A model generated the notes under the pieces. That model did no database searches, was not told the DNA's origin, and worked only from the letters and a program-made list of their open reading frames with translations. From NCBI RefSeq assembly GCF_002854065.1, contig NZ_CP024147.1: a stretch of 64,000 nt of DNA; one strand, given 5' to 3'. Of the stretch, positions 1 through 12,282 are shown piece by piece; position 1 is the stretch's first letter, and each line of letters begins with the position of its first letter. The DNA is from Escherichia coli. Lineage in GTDB: Bacteria > Pseudomonadota > Gammaproteobacteria > Enterobacterales > Enterobacteriaceae. Position numbers and translations under genes: made by a program.

Positions 1-659
<659 letters not shown>

Positions 660-660
660 G

Positions 661-1572
<912 letters not shown>

Positions 1573-1685
1573 TTAAATGTCGAGATAACGATCACAAAAC
1601 GACAATATGAAAATTGTTCGAGGAGTGAAAGGCAAAAAAACGGCCTCCCGATAGGGAAGCCGTAGCAAAGTGCGCGTGTTTTTAT

Positions 1686-1719
1686 GCCGGATGCAGCGTA
1701 AACGCCTTATCCGTCCTAC
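1686..1719. repeat. REP (repetitive extragenic palindrome) element in gatY-fbaB intergenic region
   Basis: gccggatgcagcgtaaacgccttatccgtcctac matches the E. coli REP family motif (GCCGGATGCGGCG...CCTTATCCGGCCTAC). Confidence 0.7.
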
Positions 1720-1746
1720 GGGGTGGTGTTGTTCGTATAAGGCGTA

Positions 1747-2799
1747 TCAGGCGATAGTAATTTTGCTATCGAGATAAACGTCCTGCACGGCGTTAATCAG
1801 TTTCACGCCGTCAGCCATCGATTTCTTGAACGCCTTACGTCCAAGAATCAGCCCCATTCCGCCAGCGCGTTTGTTGATAACCGCAGTACGCACTGCATCG
1901 CTGAGGTCAGTTTCACCGCCCGCAGCACCGCCGGAGTTTATCAACCCAGCCCGGCCCATATAGCAGTTAGCTAACTGATAACGCACCAGATCAATCGGGT
2001 TTTCGCTGGTCAATTTGCTGTAAACACGATCGTCGGTGTAACCGTAATTAATCGCTTTATAGCCGCCGTTATTTTCCGCCATTTTTTGTTTGACGATATC
2101 TGCACCTATGGTTGCCGCCAGATGGTTTGCCTGACCGGTCAGGTCGGCGGAAACATGGTAATCAACGCCATCTTTCTTAAAGGCGGAGTTACGCAAATAG
2201 GCCCACAGCACGGTCACCATGCCCAGCTCGTGCGCACGTTCAAAAGCCGCAGAAATTTCTTCAATCTGGCGACGTGACTCTTCCGAGCCAAAATAGATAG
2301 TCGCACCAACCGCCACCGCGCCCATGTTGAAAGCCTGCTCCACGCTGGCATACAGCGTTTGATCGTAGGTATTCGGGTAACTTAGCGTCTCGTTGTGATT
2401 AAGTTTGACGAGAAATGGAATGCGATGCGCATAGCGCCGCGATACCGACGCCAACACGCCGTAAGTTGATGCCACACAGTTACAGCCCGCTTCGATCGCC
2501 AGTTCAACAATGTTTTTCGGGTCAAAGTAGAGCGGGTTAGCAGCAAATGAAGCTCCGGCAGAGTGCTCAACGCCCTGGTCAACCGGCAGAATAGAAAGAT
2601 ATCCTGTGCCAGCCAGACGCCCGGTGTTGTACAACGTCTGCATATTACGTAACACCGCTGGCGGGCGATTATTGTCAATCATTACGCGGTCTACGTAGTC
2701 ATGTCCGGGGAGATAAAGCTGGTCAGAAGGAATTGTCATACAACGGTGCTGTAAAAGGTTGTCGGCGTCTTTGCCAAGCAACTGCGCAATATCTGTCAT
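1747..2799 (-). CDS. fbaB: Fructose-bisphosphate aldolase, class I
   Basis: Translation [19 protein letters not shown]... (350 aa after trimming the 374-aa ORF to the internal Met) recognised as FbaB. Confidence 0.9.
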
Positions 2800-3055
2800 T
2801 ACTATGCTCCCGTAAATTCCGATTGGATATCGGCTATGGATTGTCCTGGCCCGCCTTTTGCGGGCAATCATAATCCTGGTCGTTACGGGCGAGTTTTTCC
2901 ATCTTTTGGATGTTTTTTCAGCGTTTTCTGTTGGCTCGATTCATCAGAAAAAATGTTAGCGCGGTCAAGTTTTCACCGTAAAGGTATTTAAAAGGTATTA
3001 TTAAGTAGTATTGTCATCGCGTACCTTACATTACCTGTCATGAAGGAATTAAAAG

Positions 3056-4333
3056 ATGAAAACAACAGCAAAGCTGTCGTTCATGATGTTTGTTGAATGG
3101 TTTATCTGGGGCGCGTGGTTTGTGCCATTGTGGTTGTGGTTAAGTAAAAGCGGTTTTAGTGCCGGAGAAATTGGCTGGTCGTATGCCTGTACCGCCATTG
3201 CGGCGATCCTGTCGCCAATTCTGGTTGGCTCCATCACTGACCGCTTTTTCTCGGCGCAAAAAGTGCTGGCGGTATTGATGTTCGCAGGCGCGCTGCTGAT
3301 GTATTTCGCTGCGCAACAGACCACTTTTGCCGGGTTCTTTCCGTTACTGCTGGCTTACTCTCTAACCTATATGCCGACCATTGCGCTGACTAACAGCATC
3401 GCTTTTGCCAACGTGCCGGATGTGGAGCGTGATTTCCCGCGCATTCGTGTGATGGGCACTATCGGCTGGATTGCCTCCGGTCTGGCATGTGGTTTCTTGC
3501 CGCAAATACTGGGGTATGCCGATATCTCACCGACTAACATCCCGCTGCTGATTACCGCCGGAAGTTCTGCTCTGCTCGGTGTGTTTGCGTTTTTCCTGCC
3601 CGACACGCCACCAAAAAGCACCGGCAAAATGGATATTAAAGTCATGCTCGGCCTGGATGCGCTGATCCTACTGCGCGATAAAAACTTCCTCGTCTTTTTC
3701 TTCTGTTCATTCCTGTTTGCGATGCCACTGGCGTTCTATTACATCTTTGCCAACGGTTATCTGACCGAAGTCGGCATGAAAAATGCCACCGGCTGGATGA
3801 CGCTCGGCCAGTTCTCTGAAATATTCTTTATGCTGGCATTACCGTTTTTCACTAAACGCTTTGGTATCAAAAAGGTATTATTGCTTGGTCTGGTCACCGC
3901 TGCGATCCGCTATGGCTTCTTTATTTACGGTAGTGCGGATGAATATTTCACCTACGCGTTACTGTTCCTCGGTATTTTGCTTCACGGCGTAAGTTACGAT
4001 TTTTACTACGTTACCGCTTACATCTATGTCGATAAAAAAGCCCCCGTGCATATGCGTACCGCCGCGCAGGGGCTGATCACGCTCTGCTGCCAGGGCTTCG
4101 GCAGTTTGCTCGGCTATCGTCTTGGCGGTGTGATGATGGAAAAGATGTTCGCTTATCAGGAACCGGTAAACGGACTGACTTTCAACTGGTCCGGGATGTG
4201 GACTTTTGGCGCGGTGATGATTGCCATTATCGCCGTGCTGTTCATGATTTTTTTCCGCGAATCCGACAACGAAATTACGGCTATCAAGGTCGATGATCGC
4301 GATATTGCGTTGACACAAGGGGAAGTTAAATGA
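3056..4333 (+). CDS. yegT: Putative nucleoside transporter (MFS, NHS family)
   Basis: 425-aa polytopic membrane ORF, MKTTAKLSFMMFVEWFIWGAWFVPLWLW..., recognised as YegT; position after fbaB. Confidence 0.85.
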   Translation: MKTTAKLSFMMFVEWFIWGAWFVPLWLWLSKSGFSAGEIGWSYACTAIAAILSPILVGSITDRFFSAQKVLAVLMFAGALLMYFAAQQTTFAGFFPLLLAYSLTYMPTIALTNSIAFANVPDVERDFPRIRVMGTIGWIASGLACGFLPQILGYADISPTNIPLLITAGSSALLGVFAFFLPDTPPKSTGKMDIKVMLGLDALILLRDKNFLVFFFCSFLFAMPLAFYYIFANGYLTEVGMKNATGWMTLGQFSEIFFMLALPFFTKRFGIKKVLLLGLVTAAIRYGFFIYGSADEYFTYALLFLGILLHGVSYDFYYVTAYIYVDKKAPVHMRTAAQGLITLCCQGFGSLLGYRLGGVMMEKMFAYQEPVNGLTFNWSGMWTFGAVMIAIIAVLFMIFFRESDNEITAIKVDDRDIALTQGEVK

Positions 4334-5334
4334 AAACAGAACGTATTCTCGGTGCTCTTTATGGGCAGGCGTTAGGGGATGCGATGGGGATGCCCTCCGA
4401 GCTTTGGCCACGCAGCCGCGTTAAAGCACACTTTGGCTGGATTGACCGTTTTCTGCCTGGACCAAAGGAGAATAACGCGGCCTGTTATTTTAACCGCGCC
4501 GAATTCACCGACGATACCTCGATGGCGCTGTGTCTGGCGGATGCGTTGCTGGAACGTAAAGGCAAGATCGATCCGGATCTGATTGGGCGTAATATCCTCG
4601 ACTGGGCGCTGCGTTTCGACGCCTTCAACAAAAACGTGCTAGGTCCGACCTCGAAGATTGCGCTTAACGCCATTCGCGACGGTAAACCCGTTGCTGAACT
4701 GGAAAACAACGGCGTAACCAACGGCGCAGCGATGCGCGTCTCGCCATTAGGTTGTTTGCTTCCGGCGCGCGATGTTGATTCTTTTATTGATGATGTGGCG
4801 CTGGCGTCGAGCCCGACCCATAAATCCGATCTGGCAGTTGCAGGTGCGGTAGTCATCGCATGGGCGATTTCTCGTGCTATTGACGGAGAAAGCTGGTCAG
4901 CGATTGTTGATTCACTGCCTTCAATTGCGCGACATGCCCAGCAAAAACGCACCACCACGTTCAGCGCCTCACTGGCGGCGCGGCTGGAGATTGCGCTGAA
5001 AATTGTGCGCAATGCCGACGGCACCGAATCCGCCAGCGAACAGCTTTACCAGGTCGTTGGCGCAGGTACCAGCACTATTGAGTCCGTTCCGTGCGCCATT
5101 GCGCTGGTTGAACTGGCACAAACCGACCCGAACCGTTGCGCCGTCCTCTGCGCTAACCTTGGCGGCGATACAGACACCATCGGTGCTATGGCGACGGCAA
5201 TCTGCGGCGCGTTGCATGGCATTAACGCTATCGATCCTGCGTTAAAGGCGGAGCTGGATGCGGTAAATCAGCTTGATTTCAACCGCTATGCCACAGCGCT
5301 GGCGAAATATCGTCAACAACGGGAGGCGGTATGA
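4330..5334 (+). CDS. yegU: ADP-ribosylglycohydrolase family protein
   Basis: 334-aa ORF with ADP-ribosylglycohydrolase-like features (LGDAMGMP... and DTDTIGAMA motifs); overlaps yegT stop by 4 nt. Confidence 0.8.
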   Translation: MKTERILGALYGQALGDAMGMPSELWPRSRVKAHFGWIDRFLPGPKENNAACYFNRAEFTDDTSMALCLADALLERKGKIDPDLIGRNILDWALRFDAFNKNVLGPTSKIALNAIRDGKPVAELENNGVTNGAAMRVSPLGCLLPARDVDSFIDDVALASSPTHKSDLAVAGAVVIAWAISRAIDGESWSAIVDSLPSIARHAQQKRTTTFSASLAARLEIALKIVRNADGTESASEQLYQVVGAGTSTIESVPCAIALVELAQTDPNRCAVLCANLGGDTDTIGAMATAICGALHGINAIDPALKAELDAVNQLDFNRYATALAKYRQQREAV

Positions 5335-6296
5335 GCGGCGCTCGATTACACACGCTGCTGCCTGAATTAACCACGCGTCAGTCGGTGATGGTCGTCGGCG
5401 CGGCGGTCATTGACGTGATCGCCGACGCTTATGCCCTCCCCTGGCGTGGGTGCGATATCGAACTGAAACAGCAGAGCGTTAACGTTGGCGGCTGCGCACT
5501 GAATATTGCCGTGGCGTTAAAGCGCCTCGGCATCGAAGCGGGTAATGCCTTGCCGCTCGGTCAGGGGGTATGGGCGGAGATTATTCGCAACCGGATGGCG
5601 AAAGAGGGGTTAATCAGCCTGATCGATAACGCCGAAGGCGATAACGGCTGGTGTCTGGCGCTGGTTGAGCCGGATGGCGAACGTACTTTTATGTCATTCA
5701 GCGGTGTGGAAAATCAGTGGAATCGCCAGTGGCTGGCGCGATTAACCGTTGCGCCTGGCAGCCTGCTCTATTTTTCCGGTTATCAACTGGCCTCGCCCTG
5801 CGGCGAATTGTTAGTGGAATGGCTGGAAGAGCTGCAAGACGTGACGCCGTTTATCGATTTTGGCCCACGTATTGGCGATATCCCGGATGCATTACTGGCG
5901 CGGATCATGGCCTGTCGCCCTTTAGTGTCGCTCAATCGTCAAGAGGCTGAGATTGCCGCCGAACGTTTTGCTTTATCCGCAGAGATAACAACACTTGGCA
6001 AGCAATGGCAGGAGAAATTTGCCGCGCCGTTGATCGTTCGTCTCGATAAAGAGGGTGCATGGTATTTCAGCAACGATGCTTCTGGCTGCATTCCGGCATT
6101 TCCAACGCAAGTTGTCGACACCATTGGGGCGGGCGACAGTCATGCAGGTGGCGTACTTGCCGGGCTGGCCTCTGGTCTGCCACTGGCGGATGCCGTATTA
6201 CTGGGCAATGCAGTGGCGTCGTGGGTTGTCGGGCATCGGGGCGGTGATTGTGCGCCAACGCGCGAGGAACTACTCCTCGCACACAAAAACGTATAG
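5331..6296 (+). CDS. yegV: PfkB-family carbohydrate/nucleoside kinase
   Basis: 321-aa ORF with ribokinase-family C-terminal motif DTIGAGDSHAGG; overlaps yegU stop by 4 nt. Confidence 0.8.
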   Translation: MSGARLHTLLPELTTRQSVMVVGAAVIDVIADAYALPWRGCDIELKQQSVNVGGCALNIAVALKRLGIEAGNALPLGQGVWAEIIRNRMAKEGLISLIDNAEGDNGWCLALVEPDGERTFMSFSGVENQWNRQWLARLTVAPGSLLYFSGYQLASPCGELLVEWLEELQDVTPFIDFGPRIGDIPDALLARIMACRPLVSLNRQEAEIAAERFALSAEITTLGKQWQEKFAAPLIVRLDKEGAWYFSNDASGCIPAFPTQVVDTIGAGDSHAGGVLAGLASGLPLADAVLLGNAVASWVVGHRGGDCAPTREELLLAHKNV

Positions 6297-7016
6297 ATCG
6301 CTGCGACAGTGGCTAATGCTGTACTCAATAGGCCGTTGCTGTTGGTCAAGCGCCACTTGCTTGATCACCAGCACCGGTATTTTGCTATCTAACTGAATAT
6401 GTGACTGAAACTCGGCATCCGGCATCCGGGCGCTAACGCGGGAACGCGTACGTTGTGGGTAAATGTGCTGGCTGCGGAAATAGTCATAAAGTGAAATCCC
6501 GATGGCATCAACATCATGAATTAAATGCGCCGGAACCCACGATTCCTCAATCGATACCGCTTCTTCATCGACATAGCGAATACGCTTAAGCAAAAAGACA
6601 TCACTTCCTGCTTCGACCGCCAGCTGCTGCGCGACTTCTTCGGGACATTTCACGACACGCTTGTTAACCCATAGCGTATCGGGCTTTTTCCCGCGCAATA
6701 CCACCTGCTGAGAAAAACCTCGCGCTTCTTTCAACGAGTATTCGAAGATGTTGTTGATCTGCGTGCCGTAACCGCGCGAACGCGTCACCACGCCCTCTTC
6801 TTCCAGCGCCTGCATCGCCTTGCGCACCGTAATGCGCGAAACGCCGGTTAACTGACTTAAATCACGCTCACCGGGCAAAATATTGCCATGCTCCAGCACC
6901 CCGCTGCGCACGGCATTTTTTACCGTTTCGGCAAACTTAATATAAAGCGGCGTGTTATCCGCCGCTAAAATACGTTCGTTCAGTTGGGCAATCAGCTGGG
7001 TATGCGCTTCTTCCAT
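6270..7016 (-). CDS. yegW: GntR/HutC-family transcriptional regulator
   Basis: 248-aa ORF with N-terminal GntR helix-turn-helix (LPGERDLSQLTGVSRITVRKAMQALEEEGVV) and UTRA-like C-terminal domain. Confidence 0.85.
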   Translation of the reverse strand: MEEAHTQLIAQLNERILAADNTPLYIKFAETVKNAVRSGVLEHGNILPGERDLSQLTGVSRITVRKAMQALEEEGVVTRSRGYGTQINNIFEYSLKEARGFSQQVVLRGKKPDTLWVNKRVVKCPEEVAQQLAVEAGSDVFLLKRIRYVDEEAVSIEESWVPAHLIHDVDAIGISLYDYFRSQHIYPQRTRSRVSARMPDAEFQSHIQLDSKIPVLVIKQVALDQQQRPIEYSISHCRSDLYVFVCEE

Positions 7017-7067
7017 TTGTCTTTTTCCTGCCAGGAAGTCTGGTGGGAGTATATCACTGCTTCTTAT

Positions 7068-7895
7068 TTAAGGCGTTTCTTTAATCCCATCAACGAATCC
7101 CTGCAACTCCTCCACCGTGCCATTAAACACATTAAAATCCACCGGACCATTGATGCCATCTACCTGTCCACGGTCGGAATGCTGCCAGAAGCGCCAGGCC
7201 ATTCCGTCATTGTCCGGACGACGTTGATAATAGTGAGCCACCCACCACGGATATTCATTAAAATAGCCCGCCAGATTCGTGTGATAAAAAACGGCTCCTG
7301 AGTAAATAATCGGCTTTTTTCCCGTGCGTTTTTCTACCATTTTTAGCCACTGACTTACCCGCTTGCGTAATTCTTTTGCCGATAATTTTCCCCGTTCTTC
7401 TACGTCCAGCACGGCAGGGAAATCGCCTTGTGAGAAATCTACCGTTTGCAGAAATAATCGCGCCTGAACCGGTGCTGCTACCGACGGGGAAAAATAATGA
7501 TACGCCCCGCGCAGCAGGCCATTTTCGCGGCTTAGTTGCCAGTTACGCGAAAAATACGGGTCCACCAGCTTTTCGCCTTCCGTCGCCTTAATAAAAGCAA
7601 ACTGTAAGCGGATACCGTTGTCGCGCATTTTTGCCACCCGCTGCCAGTCGATCCGCTCCTGCCAGCGAGAAACATCTATTCCGTGAATGGTGTAACTGGC
7701 AGGAATGCGAATAGCGAAAGATTTAACCGGGCGATAACCGTAGAAATGGATGTAGTCTGTAATCTGAACTGCTGTCGAATAGAAAAAATTCACCGTCTGA
7801 CGCGGATAAATTGCAACGATGGAAATTAGCCCAAGAGCGCATAATAGAGAGGTGAGTTTTTTTCGACTGGTAATTCTTAGCTGCATTGGTTTCAT
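7068..7895 (-). CDS. yegX: Glycoside hydrolase family 25 (lysozyme-like) protein with signal peptide
   Basis: 275-aa ORF; N-terminal hydrophobic segment and GH25-like region (IHGIDVSRWQ...); position matches yegX. Confidence 0.75.
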   Translation of the reverse strand: MKPMQLRITSRKKLTSLLCALGLISIVAIYPRQTVNFFYSTAVQITDYIHFYGYRPVKSFAIRIPASYTIHGIDVSRWQERIDWQRVAKMRDNGIRLQFAFIKATEGEKLVDPYFSRNWQLSRENGLLRGAYHYFSPSVAAPVQARLFLQTVDFSQGDFPAVLDVEERGKLSAKELRKRVSQWLKMVEKRTGKKPIIYSGAVFYHTNLAGYFNEYPWWVAHYYQRRPDNDGMAWRFWQHSDRGQVDGINGPVDFNVFNGTVEELQGFVDGIKETP

Positions 7896-7950
7896 CCCTG
7901 AATGTCAGTGCCAAAGGCTGACAATAACCAAAGCAGCTATAGTACGGTGC

Positions 7951-8751
7951 TCACCACCAGGCGTGGAAGTGGTGAACCGGACCAATACCGTGACCAACTT
8001 CCAGCGTGTCGGCCTGGGCTAATGCTGATGAAAGCCAGCTTTTTGCCTCCTGTACGGTGTCAGCCCAGTTTGTATGGCGCGGGCGTAGTGCAGCCAACGC
8101 CGCAGAGAGCGTACAACCAGTGCCGTGGGTGTTTTTGGTCATAATGCGCGGTGCGGTAAACCGTTGTTCACCCTCGCGGGTAAACAGCCAGTCCGGGCTT
8201 TGCTCATCATCCAGATGACCACCTTTCATTAGCACTGCGCCACAGCCCATCGCCAACAGCGATCGCCCTTGTTCCAGCATTTCCTGTTCGGTGCGCGCGT
8301 GTGGCGCGTCGAGCAAGGCGGCAGCTTCGGGCAAGTTTGGCGTTATTAATGAAACCTGTGGCAATAATCGACTGCGCAGCGTAGCAACCGCCGAAGGTGA
8401 AAGCAGCGGGTCGCCGCTTTTTGCCAGCATAACGGTGTCGAGTACCACGTTTTGGATCTGATAACGTTGCAACCGTTCTGCCACCGCTTCAACAATATCG
8501 GTTTCCGCCAACATACCGATTTTAGTGGTGTCGATTCGCACATCGCTGAACACCGAATCGAGCTGGGCGGCGACAAAATCAGGCTCAATGCGATACACTG
8601 ACTGTACGCCACGGGTATTTTGCGCCACCAGTGCAGTAATAACTGAGCAACCATAAGCGCCAAGTGCCGAGAAGGTTTTAAGATCGGCCTGAATCCCCGC
8701 ACCACCACTCGGATCAGTACCGGCAATCGTCAGAGCGTTAATTCGTTTCAT
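7951..8751 (-). CDS. thiD: Hydroxymethylpyrimidine / phosphomethylpyrimidine kinase
   Basis: 266-aa [37 protein letters not shown]... recognised as ThiD. Confidence 0.9.
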
Positions 8752-9536
8752 GCCTGCACCTCCTGCGTCAATTGCCAGAGCGCATCAAGGAAATGTGGAA
8801 CAAAACTGCCTGGCCCCTCGCTTCTGGCGACTGCGCGTTCTCCGGCTTGTTTCATCCAGTGACAGGCAGATGCGACATTTTCCAGCGTATCGCCTGGTAA
8901 CGCACAGCAGGCAGCGACAACCGCCGATAATGCACAGCCAGTTCCTACCACTTTGGTCATTAACGGATCGCCACCGTGAATACCAATGATACGATGTCCA
9001 TCGGTAACATAATCCATCTCGCCAGTGACCACGACGATTGCGCCAGTTTCCCGTGCCAGTGTTTGTGCAGCGGGTATCGCGTTAGCTGCGGCGTCAGTGG
9101 TATCCACTCCCCGTCCACCATTAGCAATGCCAGCTAATGCCATGATTTCCGAAGCATTACCACGTATCGCTGCCGGTTTAAAAGATAAAAGTTCATGACA
9201 AAAATGGCGGCGATAATCGAGCGCACCAACCGCTACTGGATCAAGCGTCCAGGGTGTTTGAGAGCTTTTTGCTTGCTCAACGGCAGCACGCATCGCCTGA
9301 GCGCGTGGCTGCGTCAGTGTGCCAACGTTAATCAACAAGGCACTGGCGATAGCCGCAAACTGACTGGCCTCTTCGGTTTCGATAACCATCGCTGGCGATG
9401 CACCGAGCGCCAGCAAGGTATTGGCGGTAAAGGTTTGCACCACATCATTGGTCATGCAGTGCACAAGAGGGGAATGTTGGTGAAAAAGGTGTAACGCGTG
9501 CGCAGATTGCGCTGAACCCAGCAGGTCGACTTGCAT
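8748..9536 (-). CDS. thiM: Hydroxyethylthiazole kinase
   Basis: 262-aa [37 protein letters not shown]... recognised as ThiM; 4-nt overlap with thiD. Confidence 0.9.
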
Positions 9537-9544
9537 AGTTTGCT

Positions 9545-9665
9545 CCTGCCATAACGTGAAGAAGCAATGACCTGGTGGTCCGTGACTTCCCTACGCTGGC
9601 ATTATCCAGATCAGGTGATACGGGTATTTCTCAGCCTTCACGCAGAAGGGCACCCCGAGTCGTTT
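9545..9665 (-). promoter_or_regulatory. TPP riboswitch (THI element) in the thiM leader
   Basis: Minus-strand sequence ...ggggtgcccttctgcgtgaaggctgagaaatacccgtatcacctgatctggataatgccagcgtagggaag... immediately upstream of the thiM ATG matches the thiM TPP aptamer as recalled. Confidence 0.85.
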
Positions 9666-9758
9666 GGTTGCGATGATAAATCGCAGAGGAGGATGGTAAT
9701 GTCCAGCGCACGCGTTGTAAACGAGGAAAAACGGCAGTTTTACAATCGCGTTAATAAA

Positions 9759-10031
9759 TTATTTGATATATGAATCCAGCACCTTCAGAACGACATCCAG
9801 ATCTTCTTCACGTTTTAGCTCATCCCCCTGGTGAACGATGTGTTCCGTCAGATGACCTTTAATCACTTCCCGCATCAGACCGTTTACCGCGCCACGGATA
9901 GCAGCAATCTGTTGTAAAACTGCAGCGCATTCGTGCGGCTCGTCGAGCATTTTCTTGAGCGCCACGACCTGGCCCTGAATCTTACTGGCACGCGCTTTCA
10001 GTTTCTGTTTATCACGGATTGTATGAGACAT
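9759..10031 (-). CDS. rcnR: Ni/Co-responsive transcriptional repressor (CsoR/RcnR family)
   Basis: 90-aa [52 protein letters not shown]... recognised as RcnR. Confidence 0.9.
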
Positions 10032-10077
10032 GGCAACACCTGGTTAACAAGAATATGAAAAATCATAGCACTATTAA

Positions 10078-10112
10078 TCTACTGGGGGGTAGTATCAGGT
10101 ACTGGGGGGGAG
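10078..10112. promoter_or_regulatory. Two RcnR operator sites (TACT-G6/7-N-AGTA) in rcnR-rcnA divergent promoter
   Basis: tactggggggtagta at 10078-10092 and tactgggggggagta at 10098-10112; G-tract inverted repeats of the type described for RcnR binding. Confidence 0.75.
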
Positions 10113-10151
10113 TAGAATCAGATTGCCGAATTAATACTAAGAATTATTATC

Positions 10152-10976
10152 ATGACCGAATTTACAACTCTTCTTCAGCAAGGAAACGCCTGGTTCTTCA
10201 TCCCCAGCGCCATCTTACTTGGTGCGCTTCATGGCCTGGAACCAGGGCACTCAAAAACGATGATGGCGGCGTTTATCATCGCCATCAAAGGCACCATTAA
10301 ACAAGCGGTGATGCTCGGACTGGCAGCAACTATTTCGCATACCGCAGTGGTCTGGTTAATTGCCTTTGGCGGGATGGTGATCAGCAAGCGCTTTACTGCT
10401 CAATCAGCAGAACCGTGGCTCCAGCTGATTTCCGCAGTGATCATTATTAGCACCGCGTTCTGGATGTTCTGGCGTACCTGGCGCGGCGAACGCAACTGGC
10501 TGGAGAATATGCACGGGCATGATTATGAGCATCATCATCACGATCACGAACATCACCACGACCATGGACATCATCACCATCACGAACATGGCGAGTATCA
10601 GGATGCCCATGCACGAGCCCATGCCAATGACATTAAACGACGCTTTGATGGTAGAGAGGTCACCAACTGGCAAATTTTGTTATTTGGCTTAACCGGTGGC
10701 CTTATCCCCTGCCCGGCAGCAATTACCGTGCTGTTGATATGCATTCAGTTGAAAGCCCTGACACTGGGCGCAACACTGGTCGTCAGTTTCAGCATTGGCC
10801 TGGCGTTAACGCCTGTCACCGTAGGCGTTGGCGCAGCAATCAGCGTTCAGCAGGTCGCAAAACGCTGGAGCGGATTTAACACTCTCGCTAAACGCGCCCC
10901 CTATTTTTCCAGTCTGTTGATTGGCTTAGTCGGTGTGTATATGGGCGTACATGGCTTCATGGGCATAATGCGATAA
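10152..10976 (+). CDS. rcnA: Nickel/cobalt efflux membrane protein with His-rich loop
   Basis: 274-aa ORF with HGHDYEHHHHDHEHHHDHGHHHHHEHGEY histidine-rich segment and NiCoT-like transmembrane regions. Confidence 0.9.
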   Translation: MTEFTTLLQQGNAWFFIPSAILLGALHGLEPGHSKTMMAAFIIAIKGTIKQAVMLGLAATISHTAVVWLIAFGGMVISKRFTAQSAEPWLQLISAVIIISTAFWMFWRTWRGERNWLENMHGHDYEHHHHDHEHHHDHGHHHHHEHGEYQDAHARAHANDIKRRFDGREVTNWQILLFGLTGGLIPCPAAITVLLICIQLKALTLGATLVVSFSIGLALTPVTVGVGAAISVQQVAKRWSGFNTLAKRAPYFSSLLIGLVGVYMGVHGFMGIMR

Positions 10977-11194
10977 CTCAATCCTTTAGGCTTGCATGTT
11001 ATCTTCAGCCCAGGATGATTCTTAAATCAGCTATTTCCGCTGACTCTCTGCTCGCTAAGGATGCTTTTAGGGCATCCTTTCATTTACACTTTTTACGAAA
11101 TCATGGGATCACTAACAAAATATCGCTTGTCAGTTATATTGTATGGCAGGAAAGATATGCGACTGATATTACAGATCCCCAAAGTGGAGAGTTT

Positions 11195-11533
11195 ATGACC
11201 ATTAAAAATAAGATGTTGCTGGGTGCGCTTTTGCTGGTTACCAGTGCCGCCTGGGCCGCACCAGCCACCGCGGGTTCGACCAATACCTCGGGAATTTCTA
11301 AGTATGAGTTAAGCAGTTTCATTGCTGACTTTAAGCATTTCAAACCAGGCGATACCGTCCCAGAGATGTACCGCACCGATGAGTACAACATTAAGCAGTG
11401 GCAGTTACGTAACCTGCCCGCGCCTGATGCCGGGACGCACTGGACCTATATGGGTGGCGCGTACGTGTTGATCAGCGACACCGACGGTAAAATCATTAAA
11501 GCCTACGACGGTGAGATTTTTTATCATCGCTAA
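11195..11533 (+). CDS. rcnB: Periplasmic Ni/Co homeostasis protein
   Basis: Translation MTIKNKMLLGALLLVTSAAWAAPA... with signal peptide; 112 aa after trimming the 172-aa ORF. Confidence 0.85.
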   Translation: MTIKNKMLLGALLLVTSAAWAAPATAGSTNTSGISKYELSSFIADFKHFKPGDTVPEMYRTDEYNIKQWQLRNLPAPDAGTHWTYMGGAYVLISDTDGKIIKAYDGEIFYHR

Positions 11534-11558
11534 AAAAAGCCCCCTCATCATGAGGGGG
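11532..11558 (-). terminator. Stem-loop with U-run on the minus strand (candidate rho-independent terminator)
   Basis: gccccctcatcatgagggggc hairpin; on the minus strand it is followed by a T7 run. Confidence 0.5.
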
Positions 11559-11614
11559 AAATGCAGACACCTTGTTATTTTTTATTATTAGCCACTTGCT
11601 CGTCTTGCTTGTTA

Positions 11615-11761
11615 TTAGTCGTATTTCACGTTGATTAATGCGGTTGCCTCCAGTGCGCCAGATTTAATTTTATTTGTATCGTAGACGTAGTAACTGGCTG
11701 TTATCGGAATTGAAACCGTTGTATCTGTAAGTTTTGACTTTGCCGCAATTTCTTTTAAATT
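11615..11761 (-). pseudogene. yehA: 3' remnant of a fimbrial-subunit-like gene (yehA position) truncated by IS1
   Basis: Minus-strand frame reads ...NLKEIAAKSKLTDTTVSIPITASYYVYDTNKIKSGALEATALINVKYD* and runs open into the IS1 end at 11764; gene identity inferred from position next to rcnB. Confidence 0.5.
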
Positions 11762-11778
11762 TGGGTAATGACTCCAAC

Positions 11779-12282
11779 TTATTGATAGTGTTTTATGTTC
11801 AGATAATGCCCGATGACTTTGTCATGCAGCTCCACCGATTTTGAGAACGACAGCGACTTCCGTCCCAGCCGTGCCAGGTGCTGCCTCAGATTCAGGTTAT
11901 GCCGCTCAATTCGCTGCGTATATCGCTTGCTGATTACGTGCAGCTTTCCCTTCAGGCGGGATTCATACAGCGGCCAGCCATCCGTCATCCATATCACCAC
12001 GTCAAAGGGTGACAGCAGGCTCATAAGACGCCCCAGCGTCGCCATAGTGCGTTCACCGAATACGTGCGCAACAACCGTCTTCCGGAGCCTGTCATACGCG
12101 TAAAACAGCCAGCGCTGGCGCGATTTAGCCCCGACGTATCCCCACTGTTCGTCCATTTCCGCGCAGACGATGACGTCACTGCCCGGCTGTATGCGCGAGG
12201 TTACCGACTGCGGCCTGAGTTTTTTAAATGGCGGAAAATCGTGTTGAGGCCAACGCCCATAATGCGGGCGGTTGCCCGGCAT
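11779..12282 (-). CDS. insB: IS1 InsB reading frame (transposase made as InsAB' by -1 frameshift)
   Basis: 167-aa ORF ...[54 protein letters not shown]... recognised as InsB; overlaps insA 3' end. Confidence 0.9.

Follow-up and report, generated by a model that had tools for sequence, protein, structure and literature searches.

The yegTUV-yegW locus of Escherichia coli as a putative repressor-controlled module for a non-canonical riboside

In this work we examine the yegTUV-yegW locus of Escherichia coli as it occurs in a 64,000-nucleotide stretch of chromosomal DNA (contig NZ_CP024147.1), referred to below as the window. It is proposed that yegT, yegU, yegV and the convergent gene yegW make up a self-contained, repressor-controlled module for the uptake and catabolism, or salvage, of a non-canonical riboside. 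Uptake and catabolism of such a riboside, whatever the order of the steps, is the probable function of the locus; the more specific version, in which the kinase acts before the hydrolase, has in our judgement about an even chance of being right. In that version YegT, a proton symporter of the nucleoside:H+ symporter (NHS) type, would import the riboside, the PfkB kinase YegV would phosphorylate it at the 5'-OH of the ribose, and YegU, a two-metal hydrolase of the ADP-ribosylglycohydrolase (ARH) fold, would cleave the 5-phosphoribosyl compound to ribose-5-phosphate and the free aglycone. YegW would silence the operon through tandem GGTAT repeats that overlap the promoter and through a weaker copy inside yegT, and would be released by a phosphate-bearing ligand, most plausibly a phosphorylated pathway intermediate, which ADP-glucose may mimic in vitro. 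The order of the enzyme steps, the identity of the operator, the nature of the effector and the class of the substrate are what we infer here. The yegTUV genes and YegW (GgaR) have already been named and partly characterized, and the regulatory half of the system was published before. New here are the conservation and mobility of the module, the pairing and fusion of hydrolase and kinase, the residue patterns, the GGTAT motif and the exclusion of yegX from the unit.

Positions 1-11000 of the window correspond to gatY-fbaB / yegT-yegU-yegV / yegW-yegX / thiD-thiM / rcnR-rcnA of the E. coli chromosome. The five genes of the locus are as follows.

3056-4333, plus strand: yegT, NHS-family transporter of the major facilitator superfamily (MFS)
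4330-5334, plus strand: yegU, ARH-fold (ADP-ribosylglycohydrolase family) metal-dependent hydrolase, predicted ribosyl hydrolase
5331-6296, plus strand: yegV, PfkB-family kinase, predicted riboside 5'-kinase
6270-7016, minus strand: yegW (ggaR), GntR/HutC repressor, convergent to yegV
7068-7895, minus strand: yegX, muramidase-like protein of glycoside hydrolase family 25 (GH25); the RefSeq start is at 7886 (9 nt later)

Save for the start of yegX, the five genes agree with the RefSeq coordinates of an identical chromosome. At the yegT/yegU and yegU/yegV junctions the start and stop codons overlap as ATGA, each behind a Shine-Dalgarno-like run (AGGGGA and GGGAGG), and the 3' ends of the convergent genes yegV and yegW overlap by 27 nt (6270-6296). 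The five open reading frames (ORFs), their identities, the translational coupling and the convergent layout had been described in an earlier note made from the DNA letters, and all are borne out by the ORF positions, by RefSeq and by hidden Markov models of the families; the locus is annotated gene content and no chance pattern. Its stretch 2900-8000 is 100% identical to E. coli strain CUWW06 and is matched at 80% query coverage or more in 5420 of 5426 complete E. coli genomes, so the locus is core in the species.

The kinase YegV matches PF00294 (E = 8.3e-57) and falls far below the cut-offs of all NCBIfam equivalogs. Its best NCBIfam and PDB matches are ribokinases, and it scores 82 bits against the ribokinase model TIGR02152 (cut-off 299.65 bits). 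When YegV is aligned with E. coli ribokinase (RbsK), D28, G53-G54, N58 and G266-A-G-D269 correspond to RbsK D16, G41-G42, N46 and D255, and RbsK N14, K43 and E143 are replaced by V26, C55 and A154. The ribose 2',3'-diol Asp, the GG dipeptide and the catalytic GAGD are kept in all 14 partner kinases compared, and Asn46 is kept in most of them; Lys43 is lost in 14 of 14, and the position of Asn14 is always hydrophobic. YegV is 31-44% identical (E = 1e-47 to 1e-80) to the products of PfkB genes that neighbor yegU homologues, versus 26% (E = 1e-13) to E. coli RbsK. Lys43 and Glu143 are strictly conserved in ribokinases, where they fill the space that holds the base in pseudouridine and adenosine kinases (PMC7797080), and the K54A variant of human ribokinase (equivalent to Lys43) is inactive (PMC12621476). 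Since the ribokinase Lys43 and Glu143 are lost in YegV and the diol and catalytic residues are kept, the protein falls outside the ribokinases sensu stricto and, judged by its residues, resembles a kinase of intact ribosides rather than a ribokinase. In a 2025 preprint YegV still appears as a sugar kinase that is uncharacterised.

YegU belongs to the ARH family (PF03747, E = 1.8e-66). Glu41, Thr76-Asp77-Asp78 and Asp314/Asp316/Thr317 of human ARH3 correspond to E24, T60-D61-D62 and D280/D282/T283 of YegU. Across 40 homologues D61 and D282 do not vary, and conservation at T60, D62, D280 and T283 is 90% or more. An AlphaFold2 model of the protein (pLDDT 97.6) has the uncharacterised MJ1187 as its best Foldseek match in the PDB, with a TM-score of 0.82 normalised by the query and 0.90 normalised by the target, and MJ1187 is also the best match by sequence (E = 2.5e-29). 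The top 50 PDB matches listed by Foldseek are all ARH-family or ARH-related (MJ1187, Thermus 2CWC, ARH3, DraG, Tri1), and this structure search gave no close liganded relative that would reveal the substrate. YegU thus shares the fold and the binuclear-metal and catalytic-Glu residues with DraG, ARH1, ARH3, Tri1 and MJ1187, but it lies below every curated equivalog cut-off, including those for DraG (TIGR02662, 79.7 versus 337 bits) and Tri1 (NF041672, 68.7 versus 490 bits). The contexts differ as well: YegU is encoded in a transporter/kinase operon, whereas the ARH regulators form transferase/hydrolase regulatory pairs. Phe143 and Tyr149 of the ARH3 adenine clamp align to Asn and Val in YegU, and Ser148 falls in a gap. 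The coordination of adenosine "differs greatly" between ARH classes (PMC7050489), so the missing ARH3 clamp does not settle whether ADP-ribose is recognized. The earlier note spoke of an ADP-ribose-type substrate; this is unsupported, as the clamp is not conserved and the partner transporters described below are of the nucleoside and nucleobase type.

The ribose of every ARH substrate characterised so far is 5''-phosphorylated and alpha-linked (PMC7050489). Because YegV is without Lys43, because ARH substrates are phosphorylated in this manner and because the metal and catalytic set of YegU is complete, we place the kinase first. Import followed by deglycosylation and then phosphorylation, as the gene content had earlier been taken to imply, is therefore probably the wrong way around for the last two steps: YegV does not have the residues for free-ribose specificity, and ARH enzymes act on 5-phosphorylated ribose.

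YegT matches PF03825 over the full length of the model (E = 3.5e-184) and scores 654.9 bits against TIGR00889 (cut-off 446.1). Its sequence is identical to that of PDB entry 8ZOJ, "putative nucleoside transporter YegT", and contains G311-V-S-Y-D315 (the GxxxD motif of transmembrane helix (TM) 10), E255 and K267 in the numbering of the structure paper. A recent study by Xiao et al. (2025) determined the structure of YegT, which has a 12-TM MFS fold, and found no binding of uridine, adenosine, cytidine or guanosine by isothermal titration calorimetry; the uridine-contacting residues of NupG (Phe143, Tyr318, Phe322 and Asn228) are not conserved in YegT (PMC11979927). In other work, YegT showed no uptake of gemcitabine, xanthosine, uridine or cytidine (PMC11241209). 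The family, the 12-TM fold and the TM10 GxxxD protonation motif are shared with NupG and XapB, the other NHS symporters of E. coli, but YegT is only ~27% identical to NupG, has lost its uridine contacts and gave no sign of binding or carrying canonical nucleosides. The earlier note was right to assign no substrate to the locus, and canonical nucleosides are now excluded for YegT (PMC11979927, PMC11241209). In Salmonella Typhi, yegT is one of the genes reported to gather truncation mutations (PMC9241588), which fits a gut-nutrient function that is dispensable in a host-restricted pathogen.

The pairing of YegU with YegV extends well beyond E. coli. A search of 1.84 billion representative proteins with YegU returned 237 relatives at E <= 1e-30; a different homologue search returned orthologues of at least 82% identity only and no new context. 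Thirteen of the best 150 relatives are ~600-760 residues long, and nine of the ten long relatives that were scanned are fusions of an ARH and a PfkB domain, four in the order PfkB-ARH and five in the order ARH-PfkB. The occurrence of both domain orders indicates that the fusion arose more than once. A PfkB gene is directly adjacent in all eight of the stand-alone distant homologues examined (40-72% identity). We regard hydrolase and kinase as an obligate pair. A transporter is encoded in the cluster in 8 of 10 distant contexts, an NHS protein in one (the closest relative) and an NCS1 permease in seven; the NCS1 permeases are of the nucleobase/nucleoside type and belong to an uncharacterised subgroup, and the exchange of NHS for NCS1 is a non-orthologous replacement of the transporter. 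GntR/UTRA regulators are encoded in three distant contexts, and PNP_UDP_1 nucleoside phosphorylase genes are neighbors in two. Taken with the negative data on canonical nucleosides, the nucleoside-type transporters and phosphorylases point to a riboside that is nucleoside-like but non-canonical.

The neighbors in distant genomes do not agree on the group that the ribose carries. In locus L096 (86-4172) a gene for an isochorismatase-family amidase is translationally coupled between those for an NCS1 permease and an ARH-PfkB fusion. Locus L087 (1337-15029) holds a purine/allantoin-type cluster (glyoxylate carboligase, glycerate kinase, OTCase and an amidohydrolase) together with a PNP gene, and L094 (1989-11875) encodes an ECF transporter, an alkaline-phosphatase-superfamily protein and DeoC. 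Since these contexts disagree, the derivation of a single aglycone from the neighbors was rejected. The variety suggests that YegU/YegV-type pairs have diversified to different ribosides. A link to thiamine, raised by the adjacency of thiMD and by tenA in L090, was also rejected: the thi genes are organized in separate units under riboswitch control, and in Pectobacterium and in L100, a metagenomic relative described below, the module has no thi neighbors. An Rfam scan of window positions 1-12000 and six distant loci found no riboswitch ahead of any ARH/PfkB operon; the only matches were the thiM thiamine pyrophosphate (TPP) riboswitch, a TPP riboswitch before a separate tenA, a guanidine-I riboswitch on an unrelated unit and tRNAs. 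The idea of a cobamide or alpha-ribazole substrate is speculation, as no cob genes were seen in any context examined. A full-text literature search found no paper that gives a substrate to YegU, to YegV or to an ARH and PfkB pair.

To define the extent of the unit, 80 loci from Enterobacterales genomes were compared. The order yegT-yegU-yegV is the same in 75 of the 80 and yegW is convergent to yegV in 76; loci that are without one of the module genes end at a contig or locus edge. In Pectobacterium and in L100 (72% identity in YegU) the four genes are found without fbaB or thiD, and their presence in these other neighborhoods indicates that yegT, yegU, yegV and yegW move as a unit.

The gene yegX, which the earlier note had counted as part of the locus, is an Escherichia-specific insertion outside this unit. 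It is a core gene of E. coli (5423 of 5426 genomes). Of the 80 loci, only the Escherichia loci L002-L004 (two of E. coli and one of E. whittamii) carry it, with yegW on one side and thiD on the other. In Citrobacter, Salmonella, Enterobacter, Raoultella, Buttiauxella and others, yegW is ~40-170 bp from thiD with no yegX between them. The GC content of yegX is 0.47-0.49, compared with 0.55-0.59 in yegU and yegV, and its nearest phage relatives are GH25 endolysins with 35-41% identity. We exclude yegX because it is confined to three Escherichia loci, has a lower GC content and resembles phage endolysins. In addition, no YegW site near yegX was found by chromatin immunoprecipitation with microarrays (ChIP-chip; PMC10819704). 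YegX itself matches PF01183 (GH25) with E = 3.6e-54. It contains GIDVS at residue 72 and LDVEE at residue 163, which we take to be the catalytic Asp and Asp-x-Glu motifs. Near its N-terminus a hydrophobic stretch of 17 residues, LTSLLCALGLISIVAIY, follows RKK; the hydrophobic segment that had been read as a signal peptide is thus present, and a cleaved signal and a membrane anchor are both possible.

The junction of yegW and thiD is a variable insertion point (window 7017-7950; L001 6844-12789; L005 2912-6735; L008 10793-11503; L019 10758-14942). In Escherichia sp. MOD1-EC7003 and E. albertii the cargo consists of several large unannotated ORFs (~207, 448, 887 and 433 aa), in Superficieibacter of one ORF of ~200-236 aa, and in Pseudocitrobacter of a LysR-like gene with ORFs of 594 and 447 aa. 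Beyond yegX, a TPP riboswitch (RF00059) lies at 9571-9667 on the minus strand upstream of thiM (71.2 bits, gathering score 54.3) and is the expected leader of the thiMD operon adjoining yegX.

YegW is a GntR-type regulator of the HutC type (PF00392, GntR, E = 3.1e-16; PF07702, UTRA, E = 2.3e-36), and its nearest solved structure is NagR/YvoA. At the sequence level, the phosphate ligands of NagR (T90, R133, R135, S165, I166 and Y167), which coordinate the phosphate of GlcNAc-6-P, correspond to S102, R145, R147, S175, L176 and Y177 of YegW; all six positions are retained, and the same six-position pattern is found in the products of GntR genes beside the distant modules L081, L083 and L094. Control by this regulator, earlier deduced from gene content, is published. 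A recent study by Saito et al. (2024) renamed YegW as GgaR and found one chromosomal target by ChIP-chip, the yegT region (PMC10819704). The protein shifts a 190-bp fragment upstream of yegT and, more weakly, a fragment covering nt 571-869 of the yegT ORF, and it represses a single 3.3-kb yegTUV transcript ~30-fold; the published data include Northern blotting and quantitative reverse-transcription PCR (PMC10819704). Two further observations concern the gene itself. The overlapping yegV-yegW pair is an "excludon" candidate supported by RNA-seq (PMC12288877), and it may be speculated that read-through from derepressed yegTUV, antisense into yegW, reinforces induction. A terminator-like GC-rich hairpin with a T-rich tail is present at 6946-6966 on the minus strand, ~50 nt inside the yegW coding sequence on the sense strand; this is a pattern match, and such matches in the region are no commoner than expected by chance.

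The study of Saito et al. defines no binding motif for YegW (PMC10819704). The candidate regulatory elements found in and near yegT are as follows.

2972-3001, plus strand: promoter-like site TTCACC-18 nt-TATTAT from a consensus scan, ~55 nt upstream of the yegT ATG
2980-3001, unstranded: candidate primary YegW operator O1, tandem direct repeat AAAGGTATTt-AAAAGGTATTAT with the pattern GGTAT-N6-GGTAT in an 11-bp register
3007-3025, unstranded: conserved half-sites (A/G)GTA ... GTACC, seen as the spacer-alignment columns GGTA and gcGTACc
3860-3882, unstranded: candidate auxiliary YegW operator O2, TTTGGTATCAAAAAGGTATTATT, with 18 of 23 positions as in O1, inside the yegT ORF

RefSeq places the fbaB start at window position 2799 (350 aa), compared with an upstream ATG at 2871 in a mechanical ORF list, so that the fbaB-yegT spacer is 256 nt long and not 184 nt. 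The promoter-like site is the only one found by the consensus scan upstream of yegT, and it lies within the most conserved block of the spacer, as aligned from 79 Enterobacterales sequences, and within the 190-bp fragment bound in vitro (PMC10819704). O1 reads AAAGGTATTtAAAAGGTATTAT and overlaps both the -35/-10 spacer and the -10 hexamer; its occupancy would occlude the promoter, which fits repression. The O1 block is nearly invariant in the 79 orthologous spacers, and two exact copies of AAAGGTATT are present in 70 of them. This 9-mer has three exact copies in the window against 0.46 expected, and GGTAT-N6-GGTAT occurs exactly twice (2983-2998 and 3863-3878) against 0.04 expected, that is, once in each of the published YegW-binding fragments. 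O2 spans nt 805-827 of the yegT ORF (core nt 808-823), within the weaker-binding fragment and the second ChIP peak (PMC10819704). It holds the third exact copy of AAAGGTATT, which is kept in 38 of 79 orthologues and overlaps conserved codons for KRFGIKKVLL. The 11-bp tandem layout is also seen upstream of distant modules, as AAAGGTATTATAAAGGTTAT in L100 and AACTGGACTTAAACTGGATTTAT in L081. These observations suggest that YegW binds the GGTAT-N6-GGTAT motif. The half-sites at 3007-3025, which form a perfect GGTAC-N9-GTACC inverted repeat in Citrobacter, are possibly an extension of the operator. Elsewhere in the fbaB-yegT spacer, positions 2924-2951 hold an imperfect inverted repeat (TTTTCTGTTG/CATCAGAAAA) with a core, gcTGgc.cg.ttca, that is conserved across genera. 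It looks like a Cra (FruR) box, and the gene it controls may be fbaB and not yegT.

An importer, a PfkB kinase, a bond-cleaving enzyme and a local repressor are encoded together here as in operons of the psuKGT and frlABCD-R type, and by analogy YegV may act on the intact riboside and YegU on the phosphorylated intermediate. In pseudouridine catabolism by E. coli, encoded by psuT (yeiM), psuK (yeiC) and psuG (yeiN), the kinase phosphorylates the intact riboside at O5' and PsuG cleaves the glycosidic bond of the 5'-monophosphate, which yields ribose-5-phosphate and the base. As in yegTUV, a nucleoside-family transporter is combined with a PfkB kinase and a bond-cleaving enzyme, and the pocket of pseudouridine kinase, like that of YegV, is without the ribokinase Lys43 and Glu143. 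The two systems differ in that the psu transporter belongs to the CNT family and YegT to NHS, and in that PsuG, unlike the ARH-fold two-metal hydrolase YegU, cleaves a C-C glycosidic bond and is built on another fold. YegV scores 19.6 bits against the PsuK model (cut-off 540), and the nucleoside assays of YegT did not include pseudouridine. Fructoselysine utilization by frlABCD of E. coli also uses an importer, a PfkB kinase that acts on the intact compound and a deglycase that acts on the phosphorylated intermediate, with a HutC-type regulator, FrlR. The logic is the same as for yegTUV-yegW, including a local GntR/HutC repressor that answers to a pathway compound, but the substrate is an Amadori hexose adduct and not a riboside, the deglycase is of the SIS family, and YegV scores 42 bits against an FrlD cut-off of 247. 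The rus loci of Bacteroidetes likewise combine a kinase, a transporter, a local regulator and nucleoside-cleaving enzymes, which in some species include ARH-family members. They are SusC/D-type polysaccharide utilization loci that are induced by free ribose and encode bona fide ribokinases, whereas yegTUV is a compact three-gene operon with a kinase that is not ribokinase-like.

The rus loci bear on a different order of events, in which a riboside or an ADP-ribosyl-type compound enters through YegT, YegU releases free ribose and YegV phosphorylates the ribose or the released moiety. The gene content fits this scheme equally, in ribose-utilization loci of Bacteroides ribokinases stand together with nucleoside hydrolases or enzymes of the ARH family (bioRxiv 10.1101/574913), YegV has ribokinases as its best NCBIfam and PDB matches, and the E154A variant of human ribokinase (equivalent to Glu143) keeps ~58% activity (PMC12621476). 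We nevertheless consider it unlikely that the hydrolase comes first. Lys43, which is essential in human ribokinase, is absent from YegV and from all 14 partner kinases, YegV reaches 82 bits where the ribokinase equivalog asks for 300, and E. coli already has RbsK. The ribose of known ARH substrates is phosphorylated, and the putative phosphate site of YegW fits a phosphorylated inducer made before cleavage. A regulatory role of YegU as a de-ADP-ribosylase of the DraG, ARH1/3 or Tri1 type, with the linkage to transporter and kinase being incidental or reflecting a conflict or defense system, is very improbable. The family, the fold and the intact catalytic center would allow it, but YegU is far below the DraG (80 versus 337 bits) and Tri1 (69 versus 490 bits) cut-offs, the adenine-stacking Phe143 and Tyr149 of ARH3 are Asn and Val, and the locus has no gene for an ADP-ribosyltransferase. 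Moreover, yegU is translationally coupled to the transporter and kinase genes, and its homologues are repeatedly fused to the kinase. A defense or toxin-antitoxin reading was rejected, as PADLOC gave 0 matches for the five proteins.

Saito et al. (2024) put forward a model in which yegTUV acts on ADP-glucose or feeds glycogen synthesis and GgaR senses ADP-glucose. In their electrophoretic mobility shift assays, ADP-glucose at 10-100 uM freed the DNA of the fbaB/yegT spacer from YegW, and ADP and glucose did not (PMC10819704). Deletion of yegW raised glycogen 2-3-fold and weakened growth on glucose minimal medium, yegTUV mRNA was ~3-fold higher at 1% than at 0.25% glucose in a YegW-dependent manner, and a yegV deletion is among the low-glycogen mutants of an earlier screen cited there (PMC10819704). 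The effector and the phenotype in this model thus have real backing from experiments. As an account of what the operon does, this model seems to us quite unlikely. No activity of YegU or YegV on ADP-glucose is reported, and the study contains no double deletion of yegW and yegTUV and did not include ADP-ribose or nucleotides as effectors (PMC10819704). The partners of YegU and YegV are nucleobase or nucleoside transporters, nucleoside phosphorylases and purine- or amide-catabolic genes, glg genes are absent from all 10 distant contexts and all 80 enterobacterial loci, and a dedicated importer is hard to square with the sensing of an internal precursor.

Several points weigh against a kinase-first riboside module under the proposed operator. 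The model leaves the glycogen and growth phenotypes of the yegW deletion and the release by ADP-glucose unexplained. Dimers of GntR regulators usually bind inverted repeats, whereas we propose a direct repeat as the motif. The phosphate-site residues of YegW may be a general feature of the HutC family. Glu143 is kept in 3 of the 14 partner kinases, and the residue argument shows only that YegV is not a canonical ribokinase; it is no proof that an intact riboside is used. The negative assays of YegT could stem from inactive protein. The distant contexts point to different aglycones, and the specificity in E. coli need not match any of them. Finally, we know of no ARH-family enzyme shown to hydrolyse a small 5-phosphoribosyl metabolite.

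If the kinase does act first, the candidate substrates include an alpha-linked riboside, since the known ARH substrates are all alpha-linked, a pyridinium-type riboside (nicotinamide or nicotinate riboside), which would make YegU a nucleosidase of the nicotinamide mononucleotide type, and a modified-RNA nucleoside. In a broader sense, YegV and YegU may be the E. coli case of a widespread and often fused pair of a riboside 5'-kinase and an ARH-fold 5-phosphoribosyl hydrolase that defines a new catabolic or salvage route, a generalization that we offer tentatively and rate a little short of an even chance.

The genes yegT, yegU and yegV count among the uncharacterised genes of E. coli K-12, yet they are core genes of the species. 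To our knowledge, the ARH fold is so far known only for reversing ADP-ribosylation; if the proposed route is correct, the fold would have a metabolic job in bacteria, and this would be the first role of the family there in small-molecule metabolism. The effects of ADP-glucose and on glycogen would then be secondary, and the glycogen story of GgaR would need to be reinterpreted. A recurring hydrolase-kinase pair of several bacterial lineages would gain a function, and a nutrient or salvage substrate taken up by enteric bacteria, one that is no standard nucleoside, would be identified.

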